A stretch of DNA of 64,000 bases from a virus (Duplodnaviria > Heunggongvirae > Uroviricota > Caudoviricetes), in the IMG/VR virus record IMGVR_UViG_2645727636_000004, positions 76,925 to 140,924 of that record. The stretch is one strand, 5' to 3'. The notes under the pieces are model-generated. The model was not told the DNA's origin. It searched no databases and saw only the letters and a program-made list of their open reading frames with translations. Within the stretch, counting starts at the first letter, position 1. Every line of letters starts with the position of its first letter. This document shows, piece by piece, positions 31,777 through 59,337 of the stretch. A program made the translations under genes and the position numbers.

Positions 31777-33123
31777 ATGAAAATCAATAAAGATAGAGAA
31801 TCTTTAGAGACAGAAGTAAAAAGTCTAATTTCTTTATTTGCTACAACTGTAGATAAAAAAGAATTTGACTTAATTGTAGAGCATTTAAATAGTAAACATG
31901 GAATTAAAAAGTCTAATGTTTATATGTTACTTAACAACTCAAATAATGTATCTAAATTAACATTAGAAGAATTAGCATTATTCGGAAAACAATTAACTGT
32001 AAAATTAGGAATTGATAATATTGAATGGATGAATACTTGGTTCACTGAAAGAGAAATTAAAGAATTCGAAAGATTTCAATTTGTTGATATGCAATCAATT
32101 GATGATCTAGATTTCCCTATAACGCTTTCCAATGTAACTTATCTTGGAAATGGATACTATAATTTAACAATTACAAGACAATTGCTTGGTAGGTTATATA
32201 AATACGGTAAATTAAACTACAATCCAAATGTACAACGTGGAATGAGAAAAGTCTATCGTTATGGTAAAGAGATGGAAGAACCAATTGTATTTAAAAGTAA
32301 AGTAACTGAAATGAGTAAATTGACATTAGAAGATAAATTAGAACCATCAACAATAACATTAAATGCAGCACAAATGTCGTCTGATGAAGGTGAAGAACTA
32401 ATTTACGATGAAAAATCGCACAAATTAACAATAAATTCAGGGACAATTTTAGATATCGTAGACGGAATGCATAGAACGTTAGCAACATATAGTGCATATT
32501 CAAAAGATAAAGACATTAACGGATCTTATCCAATTACTATTTCTAACAAATCAGATGAAGAAATTCAGAGATATCAAGTAAATATGGATAAACAAACTCC
32601 ATTAACAAGAAGTAAGATTGTCGAGTATTCAGGTGGGCATGTTAGTAATGTGATTAATATTTTAAAATCTAAAGGTGAATTAAAAGACAGAATTAGTTCA
32701 GTAGGAGACAGTAAGGCAACTTTACGCGGTAGTGATATTATCCCTTATAAAATGCTACATGCTGCTATTAGTAATGTTTATAATATTGATTCTGTACTTC
32801 AATCAAGAAAAGTTGCAGATGAAATAAATGAATATCTAGTATATCTATTTGGGTATTTTGGTAAGCACGAAAGAGATGAATATAAAGTATTGTTTGATGC
32901 AGATTTATTCGAAGCTCATTTAACTTTGGCTAGTAAGATGAAAGAGAATAAAATTCCGTATGACAAACTGTCTGAAATAATTAAAATTGAAGCATTTAAT
33001 ATAGAGAATAAATTCTGGAAAGATACAAATGTAATCAATAATGAAGGTAAAGTAGTAAACAAGAAAATGAGAAGGAAGATAAGTGATTTCTTTGAAGGTA
33101 TGTTAGAGGAGGCAGAATTGTAG
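31777..33123 (+). CDS. DGQHR-domain (DndB-like, ParB/Srx-fold) protein with an extra N-terminal domain (448 aa)
   Basis: NVQRGMRKVYRYGKEM followed about 70 aa later by ILDIVDGMHRTLA, paralleling the QR...DGQHR layout of the DndB family; RBS GAAAGGAGttttttaaATG. Confidence 0.55.
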   Translation: MKINKDRESLETEVKSLISLFATTVDKKEFDLIVEHLNSKHGIKKSNVYMLLNNSNNVSKLTLEELALFGKQLTVKLGIDNIEWMNTWFTEREIKEFERFQFVDMQSIDDLDFPITLSNVTYLGNGYYNLTITRQLLGRLYKYGKLNYNPNVQRGMRKVYRYGKEMEEPIVFKSKVTEMSKLTLEDKLEPSTITLNAAQMSSDEGEELIYDEKSHKLTINSGTILDIVDGMHRTLATYSAYSKDKDINGSYPITISNKSDEEIQRYQVNMDKQTPLTRSKIVEYSGGHVSNVINILKSKGELKDRISSVGDSKATLRGSDIIPYKMLHAAISNVYNIDSVLQSRKVADEINEYLVYLFGYFGKHERDEYKVLFDADLFEAHLTLASKMKENKIPYDKLSEIIKIEAFNIENKFWKDTNVINNEGKVVNKKMRRKISDFFEGMLEEAEL

Positions 33124-34100
33124 TGTATAACAGAGAATATAAAATGAAATTTATTGAAACTTTAGATGTTAAAGAAATAAGTGAGGAGCGTTATGTTTAT
33201 CTTTTTGAAAAAACAGCGGAAGTTGAATTTAAAATTAATAAAGATTTGTTTGATATGAATTTCGAAGAATTGGAAATTACTTTTTATGCAGCTAAGAGAA
33301 GTAAGCATCGATCACTAATTTCATATATTACAACTATAAAAAATTACATTACATGGGCTAAAGATAATGGTTATGGCGTATCACCAGTTCATCCAATCGT
33401 GGAATCTATCAATACTTCTTTTGTTGATAAATACTTATATAAAGAAGGATTAACTTATTATACAAGAGAAGCTTTACTTATGAATATTGAAAAGCTTATA
33501 AATGTTCGTGATAAAGCAATCGTTTTAGCAGTGTTTGAGGGGATCAGAGGTAAGGCTTTATCTGAATTAACTAATTTACGATATGAAGATTTATCTGAAA
33601 AAGAAGGTAAATATTATGCATCATTGCTTTCTGATGAAATTAATTTAGATAATCGTCAAATTGAAATATCTAAAGAGTTATACGACTTATTTGTTCAAAC
33701 TTATAGAAAAACAGAGTACATTGGAAAGAAAGGAAATGTTACTCGTGTTGCTGATGGAGAATATATATTAAGAAAGAATCGAGTAGGTGAAGGTGATATT
33801 AGATTTACAGTCAGTATGATTAATAGTTTATTCTCGGGCATCATTAAAACTGAGTTTGAAGATGCTCAAATAACAGTAACCTCATTAATTGAATCTGGGG
33901 CAATGTGGTATACAAATTCATTACTAAAAGATGACAGAGTTATTACTAAAGAAATAGCTACCAATGTAATGAATAGATACGGTTTATACTCGTTCAAAGG
34001 TGAAAAGAAAAGTTATCCTTCATTTATGAGATATAAAGAAGTTATAAATGATGAATTTTTTGAAGATAACTATGGCAGCTTTAAATATGAATTTAAATAA
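33123..34100 (+). CDS. tyrosine-recombinase-like protein, apparently degenerate (box I Arg retained, box II His/Arg/His not found); GTG start with stop/start overlap (325 aa)
   Basis: DKAIVLAVFEGIRGKALSELTNLRYEDL resembles recombinase box I; no HxxR...Y found downstream; RBS GAGGAGG lies 9 nt before the GTG. Confidence 0.5.
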   Translation: MYNREYKMKFIETLDVKEISEERYVYLFEKTAEVEFKINKDLFDMNFEELEITFYAAKRSKHRSLISYITTIKNYITWAKDNGYGVSPVHPIVESINTSFVDKYLYKEGLTYYTREALLMNIEKLINVRDKAIVLAVFEGIRGKALSELTNLRYEDLSEKEGKYYASLLSDEINLDNRQIEISKELYDLFVQTYRKTEYIGKKGNVTRVADGEYILRKNRVGEGDIRFTVSMINSLFSGIIKTEFEDAQITVTSLIESGAMWYTNSLLKDDRVITKEIATNVMNRYGLYSFKGEKKSYPSFMRYKEVINDEFFEDNYGSFKYEFK

Positions 34101-34110
34101 ATTTAAAAAG

Positions 34111-34142
34111 GACTGAATGTTTACCATTCGGTTTCCTTTATA
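34111..34142 (+). terminator. intrinsic terminator ending the recombinase module
   Basis: Stem GACTGAATG at 34111-34119 pairs with CATTCGGTT at 34125-34133 (G-U pairs), then TCCTTTAT. Confidence 0.5.
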
Positions 34143-34267
34143 CATAAAAATAAATAAATGATTGTACAATGTTTGATTTTTGCTAAATTTATTCAAAGAA
34201 ATAGAAATGGAGAATATTTCTAGGAACAATCAAACGAAAAATAAGAACAAATGTTTGCATTTCTATA

Positions 34268-34296
34268 TTGACAATACTGTATATGGTTGGTAAAAT
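34268..34296 (+). promoter_or_regulatory. strong sigma-A-like promoter: TTGACA, 17-nt spacer, TAAAAT
   Basis: Consensus -35 at 34268-34273; -10 at 34291-34296; lies in a 250-bp non-coding gap. Confidence 0.6.
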
Positions 34297-34367
34297 TGTA
34301 TCAATAGAGATGATAGTAGATGCTACATCTATACTAAAATTAATGGAAAATGGAGGAATATTACAAT

Positions 34368-34817
34368 ATGAGTGCACTTTTAGTATCATTTGAAGCTAAT
34401 CTAGTAATAAAAGATAAAAGTCCAGAAGAGTTGGAGGAGTTGTTTGATGGATTGCTACCGTCAAACGGACTCCATATGAAAAACATAAAGGGTAGAAAAT
34501 TATTAGTTGAATGTATGGATTCGCAATTTACAGAGATTTTAGAAATCGATGAAGATGGACAAGAAGTAACTTTTTTAAATCGTAAACCAGAATTAAAATA
34601 TTATCCTTCAACAAATAATACTTTTAAAACTAATGATATGATTAGGATTAATGGGAAAGGTGACTACAATATCATCTTGACTCCTATGTTTGCATTTTTA
34701 TACAACGGCGAAACACAGACTACTATTGAGATGGACAACGTAAAAAATATCAATGATACGAAGCTATATCTAGAACAAAACTATCCGGAATACATAGTGC
34801 TTCGTAAGATTACCTGA
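34368..34817 (+). CDS. hypothetical protein (149 aa)
   Basis: ATG at 34368 preceded by aaatGGAGGaatattacaatATG. Confidence 0.55.
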   Translation: MSALLVSFEANLVIKDKSPEELEELFDGLLPSNGLHMKNIKGRKLLVECMDSQFTEILEIDEDGQEVTFLNRKPELKYYPSTNNTFKTNDMIRINGKGDYNIILTPMFAFLYNGETQTTIEMDNVKNINDTKLYLEQNYPEYIVLRKIT

Positions 34818-34922
34818 TCAGATTAATTAATGATGATTAATGTTAGGGTGTGGTATTAGGGGTGTTTCTAATGTCGCACCTTGAAATTAATAAACAATAA
34901 AATACATAAAGGTGGTATGTTC

Positions 34923-35132
34923 ATGATTAAAAAGTATAGTAAAAAGCGATATGAAGATTTTGGACTGTTCATTTCTCCTAATAGACGTGGAGATGGGTTT
35001 AAAATAATAAGAGATGAGGATGGTTGGATATTTGACAAAACTTACAAAGATAAAGACTCAGCGCAAAGATGGATAGATGAAATGATTGATCTTATAGATA
35101 ATTCAAAAGCTAAATGGGAAGCAAATACATAA
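34923..35132 (+). CDS. hypothetical protein (69 aa)
   Basis: AAAGGTGG lies 7 nt before ATG 34923; motif at 34900-34909. Confidence 0.5.
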   Translation: MIKKYSKKRYEDFGLFISPNRRGDGFKIIRDEDGWIFDKTYKDKDSAQRWIDEMIDLIDNSKAKWEANT

Positions 35133-35159
35133 AATACATAATGACTGAGGTAAATATAT

Positions 35160-35549
35160 ATGATTAAAATTTATACAGATAGTAGTTACAAGGATGGATC
35201 ATCCACACACCACTACTTTGTCATGAAAGGAAACAGAAGAATTAAAAGAAGAACATTTATTGGATTTGATGAATCTTCTATGAAAGCAGAAGCAACAACG
35301 ATAATTAAGGCTTTACAGATGGTATTAAAGAAAGAATGGAAAGGAGTAACAGTTTATACAGATTCATTAACTACTGTATTTGGAGTTAAGCATGATAAAT
35401 TTAATAATGAGGATTTTCGATACATAGCACATTTACTTAAAGTAACAAATTCAAAAATACAGTGGAAGAATAGACGACATTATAGAATTAAATTAGCTGA
35501 CACTGAATGTCGTAAGATGATGAAGACTAAATTGAGACGAGTAGTTTAA
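35160..35549 (+). CDS. ribonuclease H (RNase HI-like, 129 aa)
   Basis: IKIYTDSSYKDGSS (cf. TDGS), KAEATTIIKAL, VTVYTDSL and KLADTEC align with the RNase H active-site segments; tandem AAATACATAA at 35123-35141 upstream. Confidence 0.65.
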   Translation: MIKIYTDSSYKDGSSTHHYFVMKGNRRIKRRTFIGFDESSMKAEATTIIKALQMVLKKEWKGVTVYTDSLTTVFGVKHDKFNNEDFRYIAHLLKVTNSKIQWKNRRHYRIKLADTECRKMMKTKLRRVV

Positions 35550-35578
35550 AAATACATATACATAAAGGTGAGATAAGA

Positions 35579-35818
35579 ATGAGTAGTGATGTTACAAACT
35601 TAAAGAATACTTTTGATTCAATTATTAATGAATACGATAAAGGTTCGATGTTTAATGATGACGATAGCATAAAGTCTTGGATTGCTAGATGTGATTGGCT
35701 TGTTAAACAGATGGTAGACATTAAAGTAGGAGCAGGATTCAAATATTTTGAGCTGCAAAAAGAGTATAATCCTCTTCAGGAAAATAGCAACATTGGTGAG
35801 GGTGAAGAAACTGAATAA
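35579..35818 (+). CDS. hypothetical acidic protein (79 aa)
   Basis: RBS AAAGGTGAGataagaATG. Confidence 0.5.
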   Translation: MSSDVTNLKNTFDSIINEYDKGSMFNDDDSIKSWIARCDWLVKQMVDIKVGAGFKYFELQKEYNPLQENSNIGEGEETE

Positions 35819-35993
35819 TTGGATTGAACCTAAAGAATATAATGTAATTGGACGTTGTGTAAACAAAGAATGCTTAAATGAAATAACTAGAGAAGATGAG
35901 TATCTGGTAGATGATCACAATTTATATTGTGACTCAATTTGTTATACTAAATATATGTTGGAACAAGGTGCAGTCAAGGAAATTAAATATTAA
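35748..35993 (+). CDS. Cys-rich hypothetical protein; start unclear, with a large overlap and no canonical start near the overlap end
   Basis: From the ORF track; CVNKEC...CDSICY motif. Confidence 0.35.
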   Translation: MSCKKSIILFRKIATLVRVKKLNNWIEPKEYNVIGRCVNKECLNEITREDEYLVDDHNLYCDSICYTKYMLEQGAVKEIKY

Positions 35994-36053
35994 AATACAT
36001 AATTTAAATAAATATATATTTAAAATTAATTATACATAAAAGAGGATGCAGAT

Positions 36054-36227
36054 ATGGACTTTAATAAATTTAACGGAAAGAAGATTCTTAAGGCAAGCAA
36101 TGAAATTGAGTTACATGAAAACATTATAGAATGTAATAGGAATGGATGGCAAGTTGGTAGTAATATGCGATACATATCAAACGATTATCGTCCATTTCAA
36201 ATACTAATGAAATACACAGGATTTTAA
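36054..36227 (+). CDS. hypothetical protein (57 aa)
   Basis: RBS AAAGAGGatgcagatATG. Confidence 0.4.
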   Translation: MDFNKFNGKKILKASNEIELHENIIECNRNGWQVGSNMRYISNDYRPFQILMKYTGF

Positions 36228-36256
36228 AATACATATACATAATGAGGAGAATTAGT

Positions 36257-36844
36257 ATGCGAAAAGATATTATGGTTGATATTGAAACACTAGGTACTGG
36301 AGAAAATGCAACAGTATTTCAAATTTCAGCAATGAGCTTTGATATTCAAACAGGGGACAAGCATGACTCAATTAATTTGATCGGCGATATTGAAAAATAC
36401 AGCAGCTTAAATGTTGATGGTTCAACTCTAAAATGGTGGTTAAATACAGATAAAGAACTACTTACTGAATTGTTGAATAAAGGTACGTGTAATGAATACG
36501 ATTTATTTGAAATTTTACACACATGGTTATTATCTCAATCAGAGACAGGCGATATGAAGGATGTCTACTTATGGGGTAACGGTATCCTATTCGATAATGC
36601 AAAGTTGCAAACTAACTTAAATGGGTGTAATGATCTGAAGTATCCAATTTATTATAAAAATGATCGTGATGTACGGACAATTTTAGAGTTAGCAAGTATG
36701 AAGTCAGGACTAAGTGAAGATGAAATTAAAGCGTCTGTAACAGATGAAAATGAGCGTAAGCATGATGCTTTTGATGATATTGCTTATCAAATTAGATTAA
36801 TAGTTAAGTGTTACGAAATTTTAATGAATAAAGAGGCAGAGTAA
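36257..36844 (+). CDS. DEDDh 3'-5' exonuclease (DnaQ/epsilon-like), candidate proofreading subunit (195 aa)
   Basis: Exo I MVDIETLG, Exo II WGNGILFDNAKL, Exo III HDAFDDIAY; ATG at 36257 preceded by aatGAGGAGaattagtATG. Confidence 0.7.
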   Translation: MRKDIMVDIETLGTGENATVFQISAMSFDIQTGDKHDSINLIGDIEKYSSLNVDGSTLKWWLNTDKELLTELLNKGTCNEYDLFEILHTWLLSQSETGDMKDVYLWGNGILFDNAKLQTNLNGCNDLKYPIYYKNDRDVRTILELASMKSGLSEDEIKASVTDENERKHDAFDDIAYQIRLIVKCYEILMNKEAE

Positions 36845-37227
36845 TGCGAGAGAAAAAATTTCGATATACATTTATGCATGTTCAAACAGGAAATATTGAA
36901 CAGAAGATTTATACATTGAATCAATTAGAAGAACGGAACACAAAGGATTTATCACCATGTTTCAATGCTGAATTTGGATATAAATTGATTGGCAGAGATG
37001 AATTTACTGGCTTAAAAGATAAGAATAGTAAGGATATTTATGAAGGAGATGTAACTAAAGGACACTTGTGGAGAAAAGGAAAAGGGTATAGACACGTTGG
37101 TAGAGTCGCTTATGTACATAGTGCGTTTAAAGTTCGTGGTGTTAAACAGTATTTCGGCATGGATGATGAGCTTAATATGACTTATGAAATTATTGGCAAC
37201 ATCTACGAAAATCCAGAGATGCTGTAA
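36844..37227 (+). CDS. YopX-family protein (127 aa)
   Basis: The C-terminal EIIGNIYENPEML is the characteristic YopX ending; ATGA overlap with the upstream gene. Confidence 0.65.
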   Translation: MREKKFRYTFMHVQTGNIEQKIYTLNQLEERNTKDLSPCFNAEFGYKLIGRDEFTGLKDKNSKDIYEGDVTKGHLWRKGKGYRHVGRVAYVHSAFKVRGVKQYFGMDDELNMTYEIIGNIYENPEML

Positions 37228-37280
37228 GTTTTATAATACCACTCTATTACAAAATATTAAAAATCAGGAGGAATGTATTT

Positions 37281-37463
37281 ATGGATAAGAAATTAATTAA
37301 GGAAGCAGTAATTGAAATGTTTAAGAGCGGTGAGTTACAGTTGGATGTTGGCTGCGGATGTATTGGAGACGAAACATTTATAGAAGTTGAACTATACAAC
37401 GTGACACAAGACGGTGTAAAGATTAGTTTAGCTAAAGATTATGACTATATTCCAGTAAAATAA
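37281..37463 (+). CDS. hypothetical protein (60 aa)
   Basis: RBS caGGAGGaatgtatttATG. Confidence 0.5.
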   Translation: MDKKLIKEAVIEMFKSGELQLDVGCGCIGDETFIEVELYNVTQDGVKISLAKDYDYIPVK

Positions 37464-37505
37464 TTAATTAAAAGTGGAATATTATAGAAAGAAGGAGAGA
37501 GTTAT

Positions 37506-37919
37506 ATGAAAAAATTTAAAAAACATAAATTTATATCAATGGAAAAGTTGTGTAGAATTTTTGATAAAAAAGAATTAAACATTCATTTGTATCGTGACGA
37601 ACTGAGCTATTGGGATTATGTAATATGGAAAAAAGATATTGTCAAAGTAGGATATGGACAATATACATTTTTAAATGTTGATCAGACATATTTTGATATA
37701 AAATTTAAAAATAATGATTGTGAAAAAGTTGAGTTCATGAATATACGTAGAAAATTAAAAGAAATAATTACTTTAGAAGAATTAAAAGAGTTTTCTCAAT
37801 ATAGTAAAATAAAACCCATTTATAAATTTACTGATTTTGATGATATTCCTCTTAATTGTGAATCTGGTGAATTAGGTGGTAAATATTCGGTGACCTTAGT
37901 AGGATTGCTAATGAAATAA
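37506..37919 (+). CDS. hypothetical protein (137 aa)
   Basis: RBS GAAGGAGAGAGttatATG. Confidence 0.55.
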   Translation: MKKFKKHKFISMEKLCRIFDKKELNIHLYRDELSYWDYVIWKKDIVKVGYGQYTFLNVDQTYFDIKFKNNDCEKVEFMNIRRKLKEIITLEELKEFSQYSKIKPIYKFTDFDDIPLNCESGELGGKYSVTLVGLLMK

Positions 37920-38116
37920 AAGCGAATATCGTAAATTAAATAATAAAATACATAAAATGCACTTGAAATTAATAAGTTGTTAGATTAAGATATATTTAAC
38001 AAATGAAACGAAGAAATGATAATTATAACATTCTCATTATAAATAAATAGTTGTTATGTAGCAAAAGTCGGTGATTAATTAATAAAATACATAATAATGA
38101 AATGGAGATGTTGACG

Positions 38117-38308
38117 ATGTATGAAGAGATAAAGCAGGTTAGTAGTGACCCCATAATAGATGATAAACTAAGACAAGCTATGATTAAGCAAATGGAAATA
38201 GGTTATCAACAAATGTATGAAATCAATCTTCAAATGGCAAACGACATGTTTCATCTGGAAAGTGAAGCTGAAACAATTAATGATAATATTGTAAAAGGTG
38301 AATGGTAA
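38117..38308 (+). CDS. hypothetical protein (63 aa)
   Basis: ATG at 38117 preceded by aatGGAGatgttgacgATG; motif at 38085-38094. Confidence 0.5.
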   Translation: MYEEIKQVSSDPIIDDKLRQAMIKQMEIGYQQMYEINLQMANDMFHLESEAETINDNIVKGEW

Positions 38309-38435
38309 GTTAACTAAAGAAGACTATGTTGCTTTAATAGTAAATACTATAAATTAATATTAACTGTTAAAGCAATGTGGATTTTAATAAACGGATGTTT
38401 TTAATTTAAAAATACATAAGAATAGAGGTGTAAAA

Positions 38436-38687
38436 ATGGTTATACATTTATTAGATGAAATGCGATTCAATAGAAAGACATCTCAGCAATACATTATTAC
38501 ATACGAAACTAAAGAAACTATTAAAGAAATATCTAAGTTAGGTTCAATTACATACAAATCACCAGTATTAAATGTTTTATTTATTGATACATATAAAAGT
38601 AAAAATGAGTTACTTAAGATCGAAGGAGTGATGAGTGTAACCGTACCAACGAAAGGTAAGTTATTAAATAATAAGGAAAGATATTGA
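38436..38687 (+). CDS. hypothetical protein (83 aa)
   Basis: RBS atAGAGGtgtaaaaATG; motif at 38410-38419. Confidence 0.55.
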   Translation: MVIHLLDEMRFNRKTSQQYIITYETKETIKEISKLGSITYKSPVLNVLFIDTYKSKNELLKIEGVMSVTVPTKGKLLNNKERY

Positions 38688-38708
38688 TATGGAAAGGTGG
38701 GATCTGTA

Positions 38709-39017
38709 GTGAGTAAAATTACACTAAATCAGTTTATATATGATAAAATTAATGAATTACTAAATACATATAAAGAAGTAGAATTTCATAGTGCGAACGA
38801 TGTAATGTTAACAAAAGGCGGATGTTCAGAACAATTTACATCCAAAGCAACAGATTTAAATAAGATAGGACAAGGTATTAGTATTCATGACGTTGATAAT
38901 ACAGAACGTTTCCCATTTAAAGAAAATGGAACTAAGGTATTGTTTAATATAAAGCGTCCACGTAAACGAAAGTTTGAATTACATACTGAATACTTTATCT
39001 GGGATCGAGAAGGGTAA
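38709..39017 (+). CDS. hypothetical protein (GTG start; the track's start at 38697 abuts the RBS)
   Basis: AGGTGGG at 38693-38699, then GTG 38709. Confidence 0.5.
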   Translation: MSKITLNQFIYDKINELLNTYKEVEFHSANDVMLTKGGCSEQFTSKATDLNKIGQGISIHDVDNTERFPFKENGTKVLFNIKRPRKRKFELHTEYFIWDREG

Positions 39018-39021
39018 ATAG

Positions 39022-39648
39022 ATGGATAAATTAACAAATGAAGAATTAGTGGAGTTATATAAGAAAGGCAAAGAAGAGGCAGGAAATGAATTATTTAATA
39101 GGAATAAAGGTTTAATCTATGAAATCGTAAGAAAGTTTAATAATAAGTCTAGGTTGAGCGAAGAAGATATAATAAGTGCATCTTACTATGGATTTGCAAA
39201 AGCTATTAAAACTTTTAATGAATCAAAAGGAATAAAATTCTCTACATACTGTTACACTGTTATGAAAAATGAAGTATGTAAAAGTTTAGAATACTACAAA
39301 TATAAGAAGAATGATGACTCAGATTTTATTATTTCATCATTAGACCTTAAGATATCTTTAGAAAATAAAAAATCTTCTTTGATAGAAATATTGGACGCTT
39401 CAGATAACGATGTATTACATAAAAATGACTATACATACTTACATAATGCAATAGAATACGCAAGGACACTGATAATTGAAAAGTATCATCCGTACTTATT
39501 ACCATTGCTATTTAGAGAAACAACTACGTATGAAGTAGCTCCAATTATTGGGGTAAGTCCAAGAACAGTGCATTATACAACTACAATGTTTAGAGAGCAT
39601 GTGCGTGAATATATTTATCATTATTCAAATGGTGAAATAGTTTCCTAG
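39022..39648 (+). CDS. phage-encoded sigma-70-family RNA polymerase sigma factor (208 aa)
   Basis: Region 2-like LVELYKKGKEEAGNELFNRNKGLIYEIVRKF...DIISASYYGFAKAIKTFNESKGIKFSTYCYTVMKNEV; C-terminal HTH-like TYEVAPIIGVSPRTVHYTTTMFREHV (region 4). Confidence 0.7.
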   Translation: MDKLTNEELVELYKKGKEEAGNELFNRNKGLIYEIVRKFNNKSRLSEEDIISASYYGFAKAIKTFNESKGIKFSTYCYTVMKNEVCKSLEYYKYKKNDDSDFIISSLDLKISLENKKSSLIEILDASDNDVLHKNDYTYLHNAIEYARTLIIEKYHPYLLPLLFRETTTYEVAPIIGVSPRTVHYTTTMFREHVREYIYHYSNGEIVS

Positions 39649-39690
39649 TTTTAAATGAAAGAATGATATTAATGAAAGGATTTGATAAAC

Positions 39691-39948
39691 GTGAAATTTA
39701 ATAGAGGTACATATAACAGAATTAGTGAGGAAGCAAGTCTACTTAGTATGACAGCGTCTCAATTATCACTAGCTTTTGAATTAGATGATAAAGAACATTT
39801 GAAGGATAAAGAACTACTTAGTGGATATGAAGAACGTCAATTAGTCTTAATCAAAGATAGTATTGCTCGTATATATGCGACTCTAGAGTTATGGGAGGTA
39901 GAAGGGCATATTGACCATGCATTTGAGCATAAAGGAGAAGAAAAATAA
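39691..39948 (+). CDS. hypothetical protein (GTG start)
   Basis: AAAGGA lies 9 nt before GTG 39691. Confidence 0.5.
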   Translation: MKFNRGTYNRISEEASLLSMTASQLSLAFELDDKEHLKDKELLSGYEERQLVLIKDSIARIYATLELWEVEGHIDHAFEHKGEEK

Positions 39949-39951
39949 AAA

Positions 39952-40699: not shown

Positions 40700-40711
40700 G
40701 GAGAGATTTTA

Positions 40712-44204: not shown

Positions 44205-44363
44205 TTGAGGGCAATATTATCGTTATTGATTATAACAGTAATAATTACATATGTAATAACATTTATATTTCCATCATTAAAGAATTATATTAAATCAGAA
44301 GTAAATAGAATTAACAAAGTATACAATACAAAATCAAACGATGAAGAGGAGAATGTAAAATGA
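44205..44363 (+). CDS. small single-TM membrane protein (52 aa), translationally coupled to the SPFH gene
   Basis: Translation MRAILSLLIITVIITYVITFIFPSL... with an acidic tail; RBS AAAGGAGattgattaaTTG; its stop overlaps the ATG of the next gene. Confidence 0.45.
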   Translation: MRAILSLLIITVIITYVITFIFPSLKNYIKSEVNRINKVYNTKSNDEEENVK

Positions 44364-45181
44364 GCTTAAAAGGTATTTTAGGTTTAGTAGGCACAGGAAT
44401 TGGAGTATTAGGTTTATCAATTGGACTTATGGTATTTGTCGAAAAAGTACCTGAAGGTAAGGTTGCTGTAGTCTATAGTCCATCTAATGGAGCTAAAGAA
44501 GTGTTAAATCCAGGATGGCACTTAGTAGGATTATTAGAGAAGACTCAAGAATATCCAACACGTGTTACTATCGTGAAAGATAATATTAGTGTAACTACAG
44601 AAGATGGAAAGAAAATCACTATGCCTGTTCGTTATGAAATGAAAGTTGATAAATCTAAAGTATTAGATATTTTTAAAGAGTTAGGATCACAAAAAATCGA
44701 ACAAATTCAAGAAGGTTATCTAGCACAAAAACTTTTTAAATCAGCACGAGAAGTTGTTTCAGGTTACTCTGTATTAGATATTTATGGAACTAAAACTTCT
44801 GAAGCATCTGCAAAAGTAACTGAATTAATGGCTAAAGAATCTGATAAACTAGGATTCATCATTGCAGATGTAACACTTGGTACTCCTGAACTGGATGAAA
44901 ACACACAAAAAGCAATTGATGCACGAGTACAAGCTTCACAAGAATTAGAAAAGTTAAAATTAGAGAAACAAATTGCAGCTGAACAAGCAGAGAAGAAACG
45001 TATTGAAGCCAAAGGTACTGCCGATGCTAAAATTGAAAAAGCTAAAGGTGAATCAGAGGCAAATAAATTATTAAGCAACTCTATTACTCCTGAATTACTT
45101 AAACTTAAAGAAATGGAAGCACGAATGGAGCATGGTTGGGTTTCTGTACAAGGAGCTAATACTACAGTAGTGAAGGAATAG
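44360..45181 (+). CDS. SPFH/band-7 (stomatin/prohibitin/HflC-like) membrane protein (273 aa)
   Basis: An N-terminal TM segment, then VAVVYSPSNGAKEVLNPGWHLVGLLEKTQEYPTRV... and a long coiled-coil Ala/Glu/Lys-rich C-terminus, typical of band-7 proteins. Confidence 0.7.
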   Translation: MSLKGILGLVGTGIGVLGLSIGLMVFVEKVPEGKVAVVYSPSNGAKEVLNPGWHLVGLLEKTQEYPTRVTIVKDNISVTTEDGKKITMPVRYEMKVDKSKVLDIFKELGSQKIEQIQEGYLAQKLFKSAREVVSGYSVLDIYGTKTSEASAKVTELMAKESDKLGFIIADVTLGTPELDENTQKAIDARVQASQELEKLKLEKQIAAEQAEKKRIEAKGTADAKIEKAKGESEANKLLSNSITPELLKLKEMEARMEHGWVSVQGANTTVVKE

Positions 45182-50820: not shown

Positions 50821-50830
50821 GAGGAAGCAA

Positions 50831-52285: not shown

Positions 52286-52311
52286 CTTTATATGTAATTG
52301 AGGTGAATACT

Positions 52312-53349
52312 TTGGATGCTTTAGATTTAAAAGAAAGGATTATTGATGATGATAAAGTTAGATTAATCCTAGAAGAATTAGGTATGCATTCAATAGAATC
52401 AAACAGTAGGTACTATTCTTGTGGTATGCCTGACGGAGACAATCAAAACTCGACTATTATATATAGGGATAATTTAAATGTTGATGCATATACAAGAAAC
52501 ATAAAAGACGCTTACGGTAATAGCGATATCATTTCATTAGTATCATATGTAAATGAAGCTTATTTCTCCGATAGCTTAAAGTGGATATGTGATGTTTGTG
52601 GTTATGATTATTATGAAAAACAAAAGCCAAAATCAAAATTAGCAACATGGGCTAGAGATATGATGCGGATAAAAAATAGAGAAAAAGAATCTGTTGACGA
52701 ACACCTTGAACCTATAGATGAAGAAATCCTTAATTATTACGGTCTTTATGTGACTGATTTATTTAAAAATGATGGAATAGGTTATCATACACAAGAGGAA
52801 TTTGAGTTGGGTTACGATATAGAGTCAAACATGATCGCCATGCCAATTCGAGATGAATTAGGGAATTTAGTGGGAATTAAAGGAAGATTGAATAGTGAAG
52901 TTGTTAAACCGCACGAAAATAAGTACATATATCTGCATCCTTGCGCTAAGACAAAAATCTTGTATGGTCTAGACAAGGCAAAACATAACATATTAAAACA
53001 AAAAGAAGTGATAGTACTAGAGGCTGAAAAGAGCGTTCAACAACTTTGGGATAAAGGAGTAAAGAATGCGGTTGCTATTGGTGGTCATAAATTATCAAAA
53101 ACACAAGTGAAAAAGTTGACTTTGTTAGGTGTGAGAATTGTAATTGCATACGACAAAGGTGTAGAGATAGGTAGGGATGGACTCGTAGATAAAAACTTCT
53201 ATACTAATGAATTTGATAAATTTATGAAGAATCAAGAGTTGTATTGCATCTATGATACAAAAGGTTTACTTAAAGATAAGGAAAGCCCTAGTGATAATTT
53301 TGATAACTGGAACAAGCTTTATGAAACGAAAAGAAAGGTGAGAGGTTGA
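52312..53349 (+). CDS. DNA primase (Toprim domain)
   Basis: VIVLEAEKSV (Toprim E) and VIAYDKGVE (DxD-like); TTG at 52312 lies 7 nt after GAGGTG; adjacent to the helicase. Confidence 0.5.
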   Translation: MDALDLKERIIDDDKVRLILEELGMHSIESNSRYYSCGMPDGDNQNSTIIYRDNLNVDAYTRNIKDAYGNSDIISLVSYVNEAYFSDSLKWICDVCGYDYYEKQKPKSKLATWARDMMRIKNREKESVDEHLEPIDEEILNYYGLYVTDLFKNDGIGYHTQEEFELGYDIESNMIAMPIRDELGNLVGIKGRLNSEVVKPHENKYIYLHPCAKTKILYGLDKAKHNILKQKEVIVLEAEKSVQQLWDKGVKNAVAIGGHKLSKTQVKKLTLLGVRIVIAYDKGVEIGRDGLVDKNFYTNEFDKFMKNQELYCIYDTKGLLKDKESPSDNFDNWNKLYETKRKVRG

Positions 53350-55023
53350 TTGTTTAAATACGAACTAATCGGAGACAATGACTATATATTTGATATTATT
53401 GGTACTCTTTCACAAAACAGAGATGTTTCAAACCTTAATGATTATCTTGATTTAGATAAATCAGTTACTCAGGATTGGAAAATATTAAAGAATATACATA
53501 ATGTTAAAAATGCAATTGCTAAACATATTGATAATGGTTCAAAAATACATATAGTTGTAGACTCAGATGCTGATGGTTATACAAGTGCATCAATATTGTA
53601 TCAATATTTAAAATTACAAAACGAAGAATTAGACATTGCTTATCACATTCACGACAAAAAAACACATGGCATTGCAAATGTAAGTGATGGCTTAGAAATA
53701 GATTTATTATTAATTCCAGATGCTTCATCAAATGAAGAAAAAGAACATAAACGGTTTTATGATAAAGGCATAGATGTTGTAGTAATTGATCACCATGAAA
53801 TAGATTGTGAAGAAAGTAAGTACGCAGCAATCGTTAATCCATATTTAAATAATGAAGGCAATATGTCATTAAGTGGTGCAGGGATGGTATACAAAGTATG
53901 CCAAGCATTAGATGAACACTACGATACCGATTTTGCCGATTATTTCTTAGACTTAGTGGCAGTAGGAAATGTTGCAGATATGATGTCATTGAAAGAATTA
54001 GAGACACGTTACTTAATTAATGAAGGTTTACTAAATATAAATAATTCATTTCTACAAGCATTAATAACCAAACAAGAATACTCAATGAAGAGTAAATTAA
54101 ATCCAACTACTATTGGTTTCTATATTGCGCCTCTCATTAATGCTGTTACTAGGATAGGAACTATTGAAGAAAGAGAAGACATGTTTAAGGCGTTTATCGA
54201 GTATAAAGAGCTAGTTGAATATACTCCTAGAGGAAAAGATAAGTCAGAGTTAGTTCCTTTTGTAAGTGACTTTGCCAGACAATGTGTAAACATAAAGTCA
54301 CGACAAGACAGAATGAAAAATAAGATGGTAGAAGCTATTATTGAAAAAGCATCAGTGAATGACGAAGATAAGGTTTTATTCCTAAAGGACATGAATATTG
54401 ATAATGGATCAAAAGGTTTGATAGCTAACCAACTAGCAAGTAAATTTATGAAGCCGATTATTATTGTTGACTACAATAGCAAAGAGGGTTTGTATACTGG
54501 TAGTGGGAGAAGTTATGGTGGATTTGATGAGTTAAGGGATATCTTAAACGATAGCGAACACATTGAATACGCTAAGGGTCATGGATCAGCATTTGGATTA
54601 GGAATCAGTAAGGAAAATATTGAAGGTATTACAACGCATCTAAATGACCTGATGTCTAAAGTTGATTTTAGTAAGAAGTATAAAGTTGATTTTTTAATAC
54701 CTTTAAAATCAATGAACTCATCTGTTATCGAAGAAATTAGTGAGCTTTCTCCTGTATGGGGAAAAGATTTATCTGAGCCAAAGATAGTAATTAATGATTT
54801 TAAATTAAATGATGTAAACTTAGAAATCATTGGTTCTAAATTAGATACGATTCAAATGCAACGTGGAAATATTACGTACATAATGTTTAAACAGAATGAA
54901 GAAGCTATTTTAAATATAAAAAATGCAAAAGAAATTGAAATAGTTGGAACTTGTAGTATTAATAAATATAAGGGAATCAAGCAATATCAATTTATTATTG
55001 ATGATATAAATATTATTAAGTAA
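53350..55023 (+). CDS. DHH-family phosphoesterase, RecJ-like ssDNA exonuclease (557 aa)
   Basis: IHIVVDSDADGYTSASILYQYL (DHH motif I/II), VVVIDHHEID (DHH), AKGHGSAFGLGI (GGH-like motif). Confidence 0.75.
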   Translation: MFKYELIGDNDYIFDIIGTLSQNRDVSNLNDYLDLDKSVTQDWKILKNIHNVKNAIAKHIDNGSKIHIVVDSDADGYTSASILYQYLKLQNEELDIAYHIHDKKTHGIANVSDGLEIDLLLIPDASSNEEKEHKRFYDKGIDVVVIDHHEIDCEESKYAAIVNPYLNNEGNMSLSGAGMVYKVCQALDEHYDTDFADYFLDLVAVGNVADMMSLKELETRYLINEGLLNINNSFLQALITKQEYSMKSKLNPTTIGFYIAPLINAVTRIGTIEEREDMFKAFIEYKELVEYTPRGKDKSELVPFVSDFARQCVNIKSRQDRMKNKMVEAIIEKASVNDEDKVLFLKDMNIDNGSKGLIANQLASKFMKPIIIVDYNSKEGLYTGSGRSYGGFDELRDILNDSEHIEYAKGHGSAFGLGISKENIEGITTHLNDLMSKVDFSKKYKVDFLIPLKSMNSSVIEEISELSPVWGKDLSEPKIVINDFKLNDVNLEIIGSKLDTIQMQRGNITYIMFKQNEEAILNIKNAKEIEIVGTCSINKYKGIKQYQFIIDDINIIK

Positions 55024-55036
55024 TGGAGGTTATAAC

Positions 55037-58000
55037 TTGGACAACTATACTGTTTACCACCTTCATAGTGATGTATCTAATTTAACCGCAGGTACAGGAG
55101 CAGACAGTATAACTAAATTTACTGATTACCTTGATAAAGCTCAAGAGTTAGGAATGCATTCAATTGCCTTTTCTGAGCATGGAAGTGTAATGAATTGGGT
55201 AAAGAAGAAGCAAGAGGTAGAAAAGCGTGGATTAAAATATATTCATGCCAATGAAATTTATTTAACTAAGGGGATAGGAGTAGAAGAAGTAAAAGGAAAA
55301 GACAAATTAATCCTTCAACGTGATAATTATCATTTTATGACTATTGCTAAGAACTATGAAGGAGTAAAAGAATTAAATGAATTAACTTCAAGGTCTTTTA
55401 ACCGAGAAGATGGTCACTTTTATTACAATCCACGTTTAACATTTGATGACTTAAAGAACACATCAGACAATATCATTATGACATCTGCATGTTTGGCTTC
55501 TCCAATTTGGCGGTTATATAACAATGCATATGAAGTTATAGGTGGTAACAAGGTAATTAAAGACGATAGTTTACATATTGAATACGAAGAGTTGATGCAA
55601 TGGTTTATCCAAAATAAACATAGAATGTTTTTTGAGGTTCAATATCATACACATCCAGAGCAAGTTAAGTTTAATCAAATGTTATCATACCTATCAAAAG
55701 AGACAGGGATTCCATTGATTGCAGGAACAGATACACATTGTTTGAATAATATTCATGCAAAAGGTCGTGAAACACTTCTTAAAGCTAAAGGTGCTAGTTA
55801 TGGTGATGAAGATCAATTTGATTTAACAATGAAATCATTTGATGAATTAGTAGAAATGTTTGAAGTTCAGGGTGCTTTATCACGTAATGAGTATTTAGAG
55901 GCTATTGAAAATACAAATGTAATGTCAAATATGATAGATGGTTTTGAATTAGATAGAAAACCCAAGTACCCTAAGTTGTATGAAAATCCAATTGAGGTAT
56001 TTAAAAGTAAGATAAACGAAGGTTTCATAAAACGTGGATTTAATAAGCTGCCAAAAGAAGAAAGAAAAGTTTACTTAGACCGTGTGCATGAAGAATTTGA
56101 TACATATGAAAAGCTAGATGCAGTTGACTACATGTTGCTGCAAACTAACATTATTGAGTGGTGTCACGAAAATGACATTTATCAAGGATACGGACGTGGT
56201 TCTGTAAATGGCTCACTTATTGCTTATCTGTTAGGTGTTACTGAGATGGATAGCGTCAAGCATAACTTAAACTTTTTCCGTTTCTTAAATCCAGATCGAG
56301 TTTCAATGCCAGATATAGATGTTGATTTTGAGCCATCTCGTAGACAAGACGTAATTGATTACTTGGCATCAATTAAAGGAATTGATTTTGCAGAAATTAT
56401 CACATTTAATACAATTGCAACTAAAGGAGCTATTCGAGATGTATCTCGTGCCTTAAATATTCCTTTAAATGAAGTAGATGAAATATCAAAAGCTGTAGAT
56501 AACAACACATTGGACAGATATAGAAGTAAATACAAAGAACTATTTGAATTTGTCGATCTATTAGAAGGTACTATAGTTTCTATGGGTAGTCATCCTTCAG
56601 GATTTGTAGTTTCTCCTATTGACCTTAATAGTCATATATCAACAATCTACACTAAGGAAAGTAATTATAAAGTAACTTCAATCAACATGAAGGAATTAGA
56701 TGGTCAATCATATGTAAAACTAGATATATTGGGTCTAGATAATATCGAGATAATAAACGAGACTTGTAAATTAGCTAATATTGAACGGCTTACACCAGAT
56801 AATATAGATGTAAACGATATGAATGTTTGGAGATCGCTTCGTGACTCTACGCTTGGTGTGTTCCAATTTGAATCTGATACTGCGTTTGATTATGTACAAC
56901 AGTTGTTTAGTGATAAGACACTCTCAAATATAAAGAGTGATATTGGAGAGATTGACTATATCAGCTTGTTAAGTTTAGCTAATGGTGCGATCAGACCTGC
57001 AGGCGATTCTTACAGAAGTAAATTGTCTAATGGTATTACGAATGATAACGGGCATGTATCTTTAAACGAATTTCTTAAATCAAACTTAGGCTATTTAGTT
57101 TTCCAAGAAGATATTATGCGGTTCTTAACTGACTTCTGCAATCACTCTGGTTCTGAATCTGACAGTGTAAGACGAGGGTTAAGTAAGAAAGAGGGGACAG
57201 AACAGTTCTTACCCAAAATTAGAGAAGGATTTATAGAAATAATGACAACTCAGTATGGGGAAACAGTTGAAAAGTCAGAAGAAATACTTCAGAGCTTCTT
57301 AAAGGTAATTGAGGATGCTTCAGATTATGGATTTTCTCTAAACCATTCGCAACCATATTCATTTATTGGTTATGTGTGCGCATACTTAAGATATCATTAT
57401 CCACATGAATTCATTACAACAATATTAAATGTACGAGAAGATAAGATGGATAAGAGTGCAAAAGTAATTGCTTATGCTAAACAAAAAGGAATAAAAATTA
57501 AGCCAATCAAGTTTGGCAAATCTAAGTCTAAATATGAGTATAGTAGCAGTGATAAATCTATATATAAAGGGTTAAAATCAATTAAATTCATTAATGATAA
57601 TATATCTGAAGAGCTATTTGAATTAGCACAATCTAAGAAGCATACGGATTTTCTAGAATTACTTATTGATATAACAGAAAATACATCAGTTAACACTAGG
57701 CAGCTCAATATTCTTATTCGATTAGGATTCTTTAGTGATTTTGGCAATAGTCGATATTTAGAGCTAATTGCAGAAAAATTTAATGATCGATATAAAAAAA
57801 ATCATAAAGATAATACGAAAGCCAAACGAATTCAAGAGGTTCAGGAGTTTATCTCAACTCTAATTGATATCAATGACTACTCAATTAATGAAAAAATAAT
57901 GTTTGAAGTAGAGGTATTGGGATACCCACAGAGTACAGATGATTCTTATGATAAATCGTTTGCTGTAATTACTGATGTAGAAACTAGGTATTCTCCTACC

Positions 58001-58222
58001 ATAAAGTTATATATTGTAAACAATGGCAGTGAAGTAGAAGTTAAAATTAATAAAAAATTGTTTACAGACAACAAGGGTAAAGCGCTATTAATTAAAGGTG
58101 ACTTAATCAAGGTGTTAAAAGTTGATCGTAGACCTAAACAACAGTTAATAGGAGGTAAATGGATACCGACTGATATAATGCAGAATTGGTTGTCGGCATG
58201 GGAGTTAACTAAGAAGGCTTAA
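55037..58222 (+). CDS. DNA polymerase III alpha-type (DnaE-like) replicative polymerase with an N-terminal PHP domain (1061 aa)
   Basis: YHLHSDVSNL...HSIAFSEHGSV PHP signature at the N-terminus; size over 1000 aa; polymerase-core-like middle region; TTG start after taatGGAGGttataacTTG. Confidence 0.8.
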   Translation: MDNYTVYHLHSDVSNLTAGTGADSITKFTDYLDKAQELGMHSIAFSEHGSVMNWVKKKQEVEKRGLKYIHANEIYLTKGIGVEEVKGKDKLILQRDNYHFMTIAKNYEGVKELNELTSRSFNREDGHFYYNPRLTFDDLKNTSDNIIMTSACLASPIWRLYNNAYEVIGGNKVIKDDSLHIEYEELMQWFIQNKHRMFFEVQYHTHPEQVKFNQMLSYLSKETGIPLIAGTDTHCLNNIHAKGRETLLKAKGASYGDEDQFDLTMKSFDELVEMFEVQGALSRNEYLEAIENTNVMSNMIDGFELDRKPKYPKLYENPIEVFKSKINEGFIKRGFNKLPKEERKVYLDRVHEEFDTYEKLDAVDYMLLQTNIIEWCHENDIYQGYGRGSVNGSLIAYLLGVTEMDSVKHNLNFFRFLNPDRVSMPDIDVDFEPSRRQDVIDYLASIKGIDFAEIITFNTIATKGAIRDVSRALNIPLNEVDEISKAVDNNTLDRYRSKYKELFEFVDLLEGTIVSMGSHPSGFVVSPIDLNSHISTIYTKESNYKVTSINMKELDGQSYVKLDILGLDNIEIINETCKLANIERLTPDNIDVNDMNVWRSLRDSTLGVFQFESDTAFDYVQQLFSDKTLSNIKSDIGEIDYISLLSLANGAIRPAGDSYRSKLSNGITNDNGHVSLNEFLKSNLGYLVFQEDIMRFLTDFCNHSGSESDSVRRGLSKKEGTEQFLPKIREGFIEIMTTQYGETVEKSEEILQSFLKVIEDASDYGFSLNHSQPYSFIGYVCAYLRYHYPHEFITTILNVREDKMDKSAKVIAYAKQKGIKIKPIKFGKSKSKYEYSSSDKSIYKGLKSIKFINDNISEELFELAQSKKHTDFLELLIDITENTSVNTRQLNILIRLGFFSDFGNSRYLELIAEKFNDRYKKNHKDNTKAKRIQEVQEFISTLIDINDYSINEKIMFEVEVLGYPQSTDDSYDKSFAVITDVETRYSPTIKLYIVNNGSEVEVKINKKLFTDNKGKALLIKGDLIKVLKVDRRPKQQLIGGKWIPTDIMQNWLSAWELTKKA

Positions 58223-58314
58223 ACATTTATATTACAAAATACATAATTTTGATAAAAATTAAATATTATTAAATGTAAAAAAGGAAGTGGGTTATTCTGC
58301 AAACAAAACACGTT

Positions 58315-59337
58315 GTGATGTTCTCAACAGGAGCAGGAAGTGCATGGTTAACTAAGTATGTAGTAGACAAGTATGGTAAGGAAAATACGATCATCTTAAT
58401 TACAGACACTAAATGGGAAGATGAAGACAATTACCGTTTCATGAAAGAAGTTGCTGATTACATTGGAATAGAAATTACTGAGAAATCAGATGGACGTACT
58501 CCAGAGGATATATTTAGAAAGGATTTGTATTTTGGAAACTTCGGAACAGCTCCATGTAGTAAAGAGTTGAAGATGAAGCAAACATTTTTATACATACAAG
58601 AATTAATTGAACAGGGTATTTTACCAATCTTATATTTTGGCATTGATTATAAAGAAGCTAGACGTGCTCCTAGGTTGGCTTATAACTATAAACATAATGT
58701 AGACGTGTTTGAGGATGGAGTAGAGTTACGTTTCCCTCTGATAGCTGAAATTGATGGTGAACCAGTAAATGGCAAACAATTAATACATAATAGAGATTTT
58801 CTAAATTCTGATAAAATGCCTAAAGTATACAATAAGGAAATTTATGAATCATTAGAATCCCAAGGAGCTACTATTTGTACTGCTAATCCGAAGCACGAAA
58901 TCGAGAATAATTGGGGAATTAAATTACCAAGAATGTATAGTGCTGTTGAAGAAGCTGCTAAAGATAAGAGTAATATGAAAGCAAATGAACTTTTAGAAAA
59001 AGGAGTCAAAGGTTTTTCTCATGCAAATTGTGGAGGAATTTGTGTTAAGGGAGGTATGGGGCATTACTCTGTATTATATGCTGTTTGGGAAGATCGGTAT
59101 TTAAAAATGGAAAAGTTAGAGCGAGAAATCAATGATGCCCAAATTGCAAAGAATGGTAGACGTTATACAATTTTAAGTAAGTTGATTCCTACTGGTGAGC
59201 TTGATGAGAAAGGTAAAGAGAAGAAAAAGAAAGTACCTTATTCATTAGAAGAATATCGATTAGAAGTTTTAGAAGGAGATATTAACTCAAACGTAGAGGT
59301 AGAAGAAAATACGATAGCATGTGAGTGCGTATTCTAA
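58315..59337 (+). CDS. PAPS-reductase/DndC-like PP-loop ATP pyrophosphatase-family protein; start uncertain (frame is open from 58279 with no canonical start before GTG 58315)
   Basis: HVVMFSTGAGSAW resembles the vvvSFSGGKDS PP-loop; C-terminal Cys cluster HANCGGICVKGG; RBS AAGGAAGTGG at 58282-58290 is too far from 58315. Confidence 0.5.
   Translation: MMFSTGAGSAWLTKYVVDKYGKENTIILITDTKWEDEDNYRFMKEVADYIGIEITEKSDGRTPEDIFRKDLYFGNFGTAPCSKELKMKQTFLYIQELIEQGILPILYFGIDYKEARRAPRLAYNYKHNVDVFEDGVELRFPLIAEIDGEPVNGKQLIHNRDFLNSDKMPKVYNKEIYESLESQGATICTANPKHEIENNWGIKLPRMYSAVEEAAKDKSNMKANELLEKGVKGFSHANCGGICVKGGMGHYSVLYAVWEDRYLKMEKLEREINDAQIAKNGRRYTILSKLIPTGELDEKGKEKKKKVPYSLEEYRLEVLEGDINSNVEVEENTIACECVF

Follow-up and report, generated by a model that had tools for sequence, protein, structure and literature searches.

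The DNA considered here is a window of 64,000 nucleotides from a Caudoviricetes virus (IMG/VR record IMGVR_UViG_2645727636_000004, positions 76,925 to 140,924), and it raises the question of whether two of its genes, 25 kb apart, cooperate in the modification of DNA. One of them, at 31777–33123, encodes a 448-residue protein with a likeness to DndB; the other, which ends at 59337, encodes a PP-loop protein with a likeness to PAPS reductases and to the sulfur-inserting subunits of phosphorothioation systems. A preliminary description of the window had regarded the two as partners in a possible pathway of DNA backbone or base modification. This pairing did not survive analysis. The finding splits into two unrelated features, a YopQ-like gene that belongs to a repressor cassette and a solitary PP-loop gene of the SspD/PptA type. 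For the PP-loop gene, the family placement, the solitary status and the independence from YopQ, taken jointly, are held with high confidence. The coordinates of all features are collected in Table 1.

The YopQ-like gene and its cassette

The gene at 31777–33123 is a YopQ homologue that stands second in a conserved lysogeny cassette, between a recombinase-like gene and a repressor gene. Its product is 25% identical to YopQ of SPBc2. The 448-residue protein gave no match to any Pfam, NCBIfam or PADLOC model, the Pfam DndB model PF14072 yielding nothing at E ≤ 1. A profile search with the same protein recovered a family of 1214 representatives at 50% clustering, mostly full-length proteins of about 440 residues, and 83 of 91 sampled members match PF14072, the best with an E value of 4.1e-22. 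Both the QR and the DGxHR motifs are present on a ParB/Srx fold. The AlphaFold model has a predicted local distance difference test score (pLDDT) of 91.9, and its top fold matches are Noc, ParB, sulfiredoxin and PadC, with E values that are weak and a pattern that is coherent (probability 0.85–0.96 for Noc/ParB/Srx). When the profile of the YopQ-like family was searched against PDB sequences, nothing matched. The superfamily call of the preliminary description, a DndB-like protein of ParB fold, was therefore right.

Although the family matches Pfam DndB and carries its motifs, the gene differs from DndB in having no dndCDE linkage: in the window and in viral loci it is flanked by genes for a tyrosine recombinase and for an MrpR-like repressor. 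A scan of viral contigs for YopQ-like genes, made with a shallower alignment (A2), found an MrpR-like gene immediately downstream in all 16 viral loci, at YopQ identities down to 22%, and an integrase-like gene directly upstream in 13 of the 16. The trio of the window (recombinase, YopQ-like, MrpR-like) recurs in phage Perkons as ORF64–66, of which ORF64 is the integrase homologue. In the window, the TAG stop of the YopQ-like gene and the GTG start of the MrpR-like gene share one base in TAGTG at 33121–33125, and GGAGG stands at 33107–33111, an arrangement that indicates translational coupling of the two genes. The yopQ gene of SPbeta is co-transcribed with yopR in the dormant prophage, its product includes a ParB_N_Srx domain, and deletion of the gene does not cause induction (10.1101/2021.11.22.469490; PMC8612738; for the MrpR repressor, PMC10516654). 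The window protein is a homologue of this YopQ and occupies the same place between YopP-like and YopR/MrpR-like genes. In the lysogen this protein and the repressor most likely act together, the former as a nucleoside triphosphate-modulated DNA-binding accessory protein or regulator that would stand outside any DNA-modification pathway.

Genes of the YopQ family are labelled “DNA sulfur modification protein” in Geobacillus virus E3 (KP144388, 107046–108365) and in Perkons (ORF65). Because the repressor-cassette context is conserved, this label is probably misleading on phage genes of the family. A mis-annotation is thereby averted: the DndB-like gene of SPbeta-like phages belongs to the repressor cassette and is no marker of DNA sulfur modification.

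Taken as a whole, the window represents a prophage of Lysinibacillus agricola and is SPbeta-like. Two hypothetical proteins of that species, FJQ98_15945 and FJQ98_16130, are 100% identical to the PP-loop protein and to the 448-residue protein, respectively, and the SPbeta-like assignment follows from the gene content: an MrpR/YopR-like repressor, a replication module, a sigma-factor-like gene and an ATP-dependent ligase. All large open reading frames (ORFs) lie on the + strand, and no near-identical DNA was found in the phage collection. The replication module comprises a DnaB-like helicase, a primase and a RecJ-like exonuclease upstream of a DnaE-type polymerase. As the preliminary description had noted, the PP-loop gene comes directly after DnaE, the end of which it follows by 75 nucleotides. 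No terminator was seen between these two genes, promoter-like matches around the PP-loop gene were at chance level in a scan, and the gene is probably co-transcribed with the replication genes.

The YopQ-like and PP-loop genes are unrelated and are not partners, since YopQ occurs in SPbeta phages that have no PP-loop gene, since the scans for the two genes have no viral contig in common, and since one resides in a lysogeny operon and the other in a lytic replication module. At least 24 Bacillus records of SPbeta-type phages carry YopQ and give no PP-loop match. The PP-loop searches returned three Bacillus records only, two of phage Stills and one of EZ-2018a, none of which is among the 30 YopQ records listed of 37. 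No contig was common to the PP-loop and YopQ scans of IMG/VR, including contigs of 132–155 kb whose YopQ is 61–62% identical to that of the window. A single two-component system for DNA backbone or base modification, its two genes 25 kb apart, could appeal to the co-occurrence of the two families in Dnd systems, as DndB and DndC, and to Psychrobacillus phage Perkons, the sole phage found with both genes, which lie about 28 kb apart. However, the PP-loop protein of Perkons shows only 26% identity to that of the window and falls on a different branch of the tree. Together with the records and contigs just described, and with a DndB-like gene tied to its repressor and expressed in the lysogen according to the literature, this makes such a system extremely unlikely. 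The preliminary description had also named ParB/Srx-fold proteins as neighbours, in many phages, of phage PAPS-reductase-like genes. ParBc is absent from the 25 listed of 52 Pfam families found next to viral PP-loop genes, among which DNA methyltransferases are commonest, accounting for 6 of the 80 ORFs that immediately flank the gene across 21 non-redundant viral loci (four N6_N4_Mtase and two C-5 DNA_methylase).

The solitary PP-loop gene and its relatives

Judged by its sequence, the PP-loop gene belongs to the PAPS-reductase-like family that includes SspD and PptA, and it is a phage copy standing alone; the kind of family is already known, the member is new. Its product carries a PAPS-reductase-like PP-loop fold, the closest folds being those of APS/PAPS reductases and of the Fe-S-dependent thiolases TtuA, NcsA and LarE, and Foldseek with the model, run against a copy of the PDB ending on 2026-04-08, returned generic PP-loop enzymes only. 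It matches phrog_424 at 2e-26. Residues are numbered here from the CTG codon at 58297, and conservation is taken from an alignment of 89 homologues. The ORF that the preliminary description had placed at 58315–59337 does contain the FSTGAGSAW loop and C-terminal cysteines on which it remarked, and their key residues are invariant or nearly so. The tail of the model, residues 330–346, has a pLDDT below 50. In P0015, a 480-residue homologue of the phage clade from a metagenome, an intein (PF14890) is inserted directly before the first Cys of HANCxxxC, a position which implies that this site is functionally critical. A 378-residue viral ORF on another contig (L038, 9146–10282) appears to combine a DNA-methyltransferase-like region with just the C-terminal ~100 residues (242–346) of the PP-loop family.

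The affinity with SspD was decided by the genomic context of the homologues. The PADLOC match of the window protein, at 1.8e-8, is to SspD and to nothing else, and a genuine operon SspD (P0056) scores similarly on the same model (9e-10). Window protein and P0056 are 41% identical over their full length (E 3e-81), and P0056 is preceded by SspB (DUF4007; PADLOC 6.6e-51) and SspC (1.2e-122). Like P0056 (292 residues), the homologues P0080 (280 residues) and P0042 (508 residues, a tandem duplication) are encoded by the third gene of sspB-sspC-sspD operons in defence islands. In a cellular set of 80 loci at 36–42% identity, drawn from a scan of one genome per species, sspB is adjacent in 75 and sspC in 74. 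SspB or SspC is adjacent in none of 26 viral loci; the gene is solitary in all 26 viral contigs, as it is in the metagenomic phage contigs L001, L002 and L010. Within the 64-kb window no SspB, SspC, DNA methyltransferase or IscS-like protein was found by tblastn (E > 0.3 throughout, > 0.5 for SspB and SspC), nor were a 3D-domain protein or counterparts of the small ORFs that lie downstream in relatives.

SspD belongs to the SspBCD(-E/FGH) systems of Firmicutes, which carry out single-strand phosphorothioation, and the window protein is 36–42% identical to it over the full length. The modified PP-loop, five conserved cysteines and the HANCxxxC and PRMY motifs are common to both, as is an insertion between PRMY and GFSHANC that is otherwise confined to the operon clade. 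They differ in that SspD operons include sspB and sspC, whereas the window gene has neither and sits in a phage replication module, and in that a further insertion of ~40 residues (about 150–195) is specific to the phage clade, the window protein included. In the preliminary description the protein had been assigned to the DndC family. The kinship with phosphorothioation sulfurtransferases holds; the family is SspD and not DndC. DndC, the PP-loop ATP pyrophosphatase of the DndABCDE systems of double-strand phosphorothioation, resembles the window protein in its likeness to PAPS reductases and in its cluster of cysteines, and it is the functional analogue of SspD (PMC10853773, PMC12707154). Membership of DndC was rejected for want of any hidden Markov model match: the DndC models of PADLOC and NCBIfam give none with the window protein at E ≤ 1. 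No tested ORF near the PP-loop gene resembles DndD or DndE, no search aimed at these two having been made.

A neighbour-joining tree of 107 sequences, rooted on PptA and without support values, groups the SspBC-linked proteins in a single clade, with the phage clade to which the window protein belongs as its sister; a grade of further phage sequences encloses the pair. This topology points to an exchange of genes between phages and Ssp defences, in either direction. The branch of the window protein would be a captured form, or the donor form, of the sulfur-inserting subunit of a phosphorothioation defence. SspBCD systems do occur in genera that host phages bearing the PP-loop gene: in Lysinibacillus antri (L107), Psychrobacillus (L094) and Rossellomorea marisflavi (L099). 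Many sspBCD operons of Bacillaceae encode an SspD of 490–510 residues in which the PP-loop domain is duplicated in tandem (L004 10001–11527, which is P0042, and L061, L062, L069, L075 and others); in the N-terminal copy of such proteins the loop is degenerate and reads GGGVASA or FGGIYSA.

The nearest solved structure is that of PptA (PDB 21fy, chain C; E 2.5e-23 in a profile search of PDB sequences). Aligned with hhalign, the window family and PptA match with 99.5% probability (E 1.9e-22, 28% identity over 215 columns), and the alignment spans the PP-loop, CxxLK, PxMY and NCxxC-VKGG motifs. By tblastn, PptA is a hypothetical protein of Vibrio phage vB_VhaP_VH-5 whose gene lies just after the phage RNA polymerase. 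A PDB query with E. coli IscS returned an identical sequence in both 1p3w and 21fy, and a phage member of the family has therefore been solved in complex with a cysteine desulfurase. The cysteine desulfurase IscS feeds Dnd and Ssp systems. A full-text literature search found no relevant paper on PptA. Both PptA and the window protein match phrog_424, and both are encoded by solitary phage genes just after a polymerase gene, of an RNA polymerase in VH-5 and of DnaE in the window. The relationship is nevertheless distant: PptA has 250 residues, neither of the two insertions, and CxxC in place of CxxxC, and its phage, unlike the window prophage, is T7-like with a proteobacterial host.

The start codon of the PP-loop gene

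The preliminary description had called the start of the PP-loop gene anomalous, and so it is: the frame is open from 58279, it contains no ATG, GTG or TTG before the GTG at 58315, and the sole Shine-Dalgarno sequence, AAAGGAAGTG, is misplaced for that GTG. AAAGGAAGTG agrees with the Bacillus consensus AAAGGAGGTG at 9 of 10 positions, and the CTG at 58297 lies 9 nucleotides past its core. Close homologues (82–86% identity) are 347 residues long, with the N-terminus M-[KQI]-TKHVVMFS, and in a DNA alignment the ATG of L007 and L008 and the GTG of L014 fall exactly on this CTG. The metagenomic viral contig L013, whose protein is 97% identical, has the same CTG, the same Shine-Dalgarno sequence and the same in-frame ATT one codon upstream (L013 7194–7199, corresponding to window 58294–58299). 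At 58297 the ancestral ATG has become CTG.

Between the window and L013 the synonymous divergence (dS) is 0.37 and the ratio of nonsynonymous to synonymous divergence (dN/dS) 0.049; against relatives in general the ratio is 0.05–0.07. Given the shared CTG, such a ratio at such a divergence implies that strong purifying selection persisted while the CTG was in place. The gene appears to use a conserved non-canonical start, CTG 58297 or ATT 58294, and we infer the codon in use from conservation. GenBank gives a protein of 339 residues from ATG 58318, a form that would drop strand β1 (residues 2–8) of a confidently modelled Rossmann-like domain, and the annotation probably truncates the protein by 7–8 residues. 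A frameshift at 58279–58320, which the preliminary description had wished to see checked, was rejected: frame and N-terminus align codon for codon with the homologues, and with a non-canonical start that is conserved in L013 none is needed.

Proposed function and competing explanations

If the PP-loop protein acts as its relatives suggest, it would take persulfide sulfur from a host cysteine desulfurase and use ATP at its modified PP-loop, with the five conserved cysteines probably serving as an Fe-S or persulfide relay site. It would then install a sulfur modification, most likely a phosphorothioate, on replicating phage DNA, or alternatively subvert host phosphorothioate-based immunity in some other manner; by either route the phage would escape restriction. 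The analysis shows the family membership of the protein, its solitary status, its conservation and its independence from YopQ; the sulfur source, the substrate and the biological role we infer. A role in anti-defence in general is reasonably probable, and it is plausible that the DNA receives a sulfur modification directed against restriction; that phage DNA is actually phosphorothioated is a more tentative proposition, somewhat short of an even chance. The explanation that we favour as a whole, a YopQ gene of a repressor cassette together with a lone sulfur-transfer enzyme of the SspD/PptA type engaged in counter-defence, has a little over an even chance of being correct.

A parallel is a vibriophage fusion of a PAPS domain to Dam, which in combination with its neighbouring gene acts against Dnd (Piel et al.; bioRxiv 10.1101/2021.05.05.442762; cited for it in PMC13551039). 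There a phage PAPS-reductase-like domain opposes a phosphorothioation defence, and this activity, with the phage homologue crystallised together with IscS, lends plausibility to the anti-restriction role envisaged in the preliminary description. The likeness is one of description: the vibriophage protein is a fusion from a podovirus, and the window gene has no methyltransferase partner. Beside relatives of the window gene the methyltransferase link is mirrored, and their adjacency echoes the fusion. L002 and L010 each have a methyltransferase gene that overlaps the PP-loop gene or directly adjoins it, an N6/N4 DNA methyltransferase with a DPPY motif follows it immediately in L013 (8404–9186), and in mycobacteriophage Maravista a methyltransferase lies ~650 bp upstream. 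The association with replication genes recurs as well: the PP-loop gene comes directly after a DNA polymerase gene in the window (DnaE) and in L013 and L014 (a PolB-like ORF of 632 residues), and after DnaE plus one gene in Perkons.

Several observations weigh against a sulfur-transfer enzyme of this kind. The canonical Asp of SGGxDS is absent from the PP-loop, which has Thr at its second position (STGAGS); the PADLOC match to SspD is weak and covers the N-terminal half only; the neighbour-joining tree carries no support values; and initiation at CTG or ATT is predicted from conservation. The methyltransferase association is a minority pattern, and the window itself has no methyltransferase. 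The PP-loop subunit of Ssp and Dnd systems needs DNA-targeting partners, SspB/SspC or DndD/DndE, and none is encoded in the 64 kb. The desulfurases of Bacillales are of the SufS, NifZ or YrvO type and not IscS, so that an IscS partner is an extrapolation, and the PptA–IscS complex itself may represent either a sulfur relay or the sequestration of IscS.

Two other accounts of the gene fare poorly. The first makes it an auxiliary metabolic gene for a PAPS/APS reductase of the CysH type, which would boost host sulfate assimilation during infection. The scores of the protein lie below the cutoffs of both Pfam PAPS_reduct (16.1 against 22.5 bits) and the NCBIfam CysH model PRK02090 (14.1 against 154 bits), which also sets it apart from the sulfate-assimilation CysH that the preliminary description had held out as the contrary outcome. 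The C-terminal catalytic motif of CysH is ECGLH, and the window protein ends instead in ...IACECVF. In superposition the N-terminal domain alone fits (template-modelling scores 0.28/0.40), the cellular relatives stand in sspBCD defence operons, and the gene lies in a replication module beside a polymerase; the chance that it is a CysH is close to negligible. “PAPS reductase” (cysH) is among the auxiliary metabolic genes most often reported from phages and viromes, and the present evidence is that at least this branch does not serve sulfate assimilation. A decaying pseudogene, in which ATG has become CTG and the internal ATG 58318 yields a truncated, non-functional product, would account for the missing canonical start after the Shine-Dalgarno sequence and for a 339-residue GenBank form deprived of strand β1. 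However, the ORF is intact at full length and retains all motifs, and the independent contig L013 combines the same CTG and Shine-Dalgarno sequence with the divergence and selection figures given above, which renders decay very unlikely.

A stronger competitor is a decoy or sponge that binds the host cysteine desulfurase, or SspB/SspC, and thereby starves or poisons phosphorothioation immunity or another sulfur process, the phage DNA itself staying unmodified. The complex of the phage homologue PptA with IscS speaks for it, as do the invariably solitary state of the gene in phages, with SspB or SspC beside it in none of the 26 loci, and the identity to operon SspD, which could allow competition for SspB/SspC. 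A pure binder would have no need, however, of catalytic-looking residues, and these (the S, G and S of the PP-loop, the five cysteines and HAN) are strongly conserved in the phage clade; an intein sits at the CxxxC motif and marks it out, and the recurrent adjacency of DNA methyltransferases points to DNA modification. We consider the decoy rather unlikely. A sulfur-transferring enzyme, the reading preferred here, can also be extended into a fuller scheme in which the lone SspD-type protein, working together with a cysteine desulfurase of the host and perhaps with the replisome of the phage, phosphorothioates nascent phage DNA, SPbeta-like phages pass as “self” to phosphorothioate-sensing defences, and the operon SspD of Firmicutes descends from such phage enzymes. 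We judge this combination improbable as a whole; if it were true, it would amount to replication-coupled backbone modification by a single viral protein. Should the enzyme modify phage DNA at all, it would represent a compact counter-defence against Ssp/Dnd-type immunity in Bacillales and a simpler route to phosphorothioation than the four-protein machines of bacteria.

Other annotated genes of the prophage are listed at the end of Table 1. Following the PP-loop gene, the stretch from 59380 to 60204 of the window holds small ORFs of unassigned function.

Table 1. Coordinates of the two genes, their motifs and associated features (window positions unless a contig is named)
Feature	Position	Strand	Remarks
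YopP-like tyrosine recombinase	30567–31709	+	First gene of the lysogeny cassette; Pfam Phage_integrase 1.6e-09; phrog_1 integrase 5e-22
YopQ homologue, DndB-family ParB/Srx-fold protein, 448 residues	31777–33123	+	ATG start; tblastn with SPBc2 yopQ 3e-21; phrog_5732 5.9e-69
Q153-R154 codons	32233–32238	+	Invariant in alignment A4 (91 sequences), nearly so in A3
D229-G-M-H-R233 codons	32461–32475	+	DGxHR variant (DGMHR, M for Q) of DGQHR; D229, G230, R233 invariant; H232 in at least 90% of 125 sequences
MrpR/YopR-like master-repressor homologue	33123–34100	+	Tyrosine-recombinase fold; GTG start; Pfam MrpR_N_CB 1.4e-15, MrpR_C_cat 3.3e-05
DnaE-type DNA polymerase III alpha	55037–58222	+	Pfam DNA_pol3_alpha 1.5e-57, plus PHP, finger and HHH_6 domains; last replication-module gene before the PP-loop gene
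Shine-Dalgarno sequence of the PP-loop gene	58280–58289	+	Kept in L013; aligned with the Shine-Dalgarno sequences of L007 and L008 (ATG starts)
PP-loop protein (PAPS-reductase-like, SspD/PptA-type), 346 residues from CTG 58297	58297–59337	+	Alternative start ATT 58294 in frame; GenBank from ATG 58318
S10-T-G-A-G-S15 codons	58324–58341	+	Modified PP-loop (SxGxxS); S10, G12, S15 invariant; aligns with the FSCGAPSA loop of PptA
Cys87 codon	58555–58557	+	Motif APCSKELK; invariant; kept in SspD-clade proteins and PptA
C245-G-G-I-C249 codons	59029–59043	+	Motif HANCxxxC; H242, A243, N244, C249 invariant; C245 at least 90%
C342-E-C344 codons	59320–59328	+	C-terminal dyad; C344 invariant; C342 at least 90%
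Polymerase/PP-loop region, window	55037–59337		Gene order
Polymerase/PP-loop region, L013	5240–8237		Gene order
Polymerase/PP-loop region, L014	8031–11041		Gene order
Polymerase/PP-loop region, L009	2129–6927		Gene order
NucS_C-like nuclease	5481–6446		Other annotated prophage gene
Metallophosphoesterase	16374–17198		Other annotated prophage gene
ATP-dependent DNA ligase	22144–23070		Other annotated prophage gene
Rv2179c-like 3'-5' exoribonuclease	36242–36844		Other annotated prophage gene
Sigma-70 region-2 protein	39022–39648		Other annotated prophage gene
SPFH/Band-7 protein	44360–45181		Other annotated prophage gene

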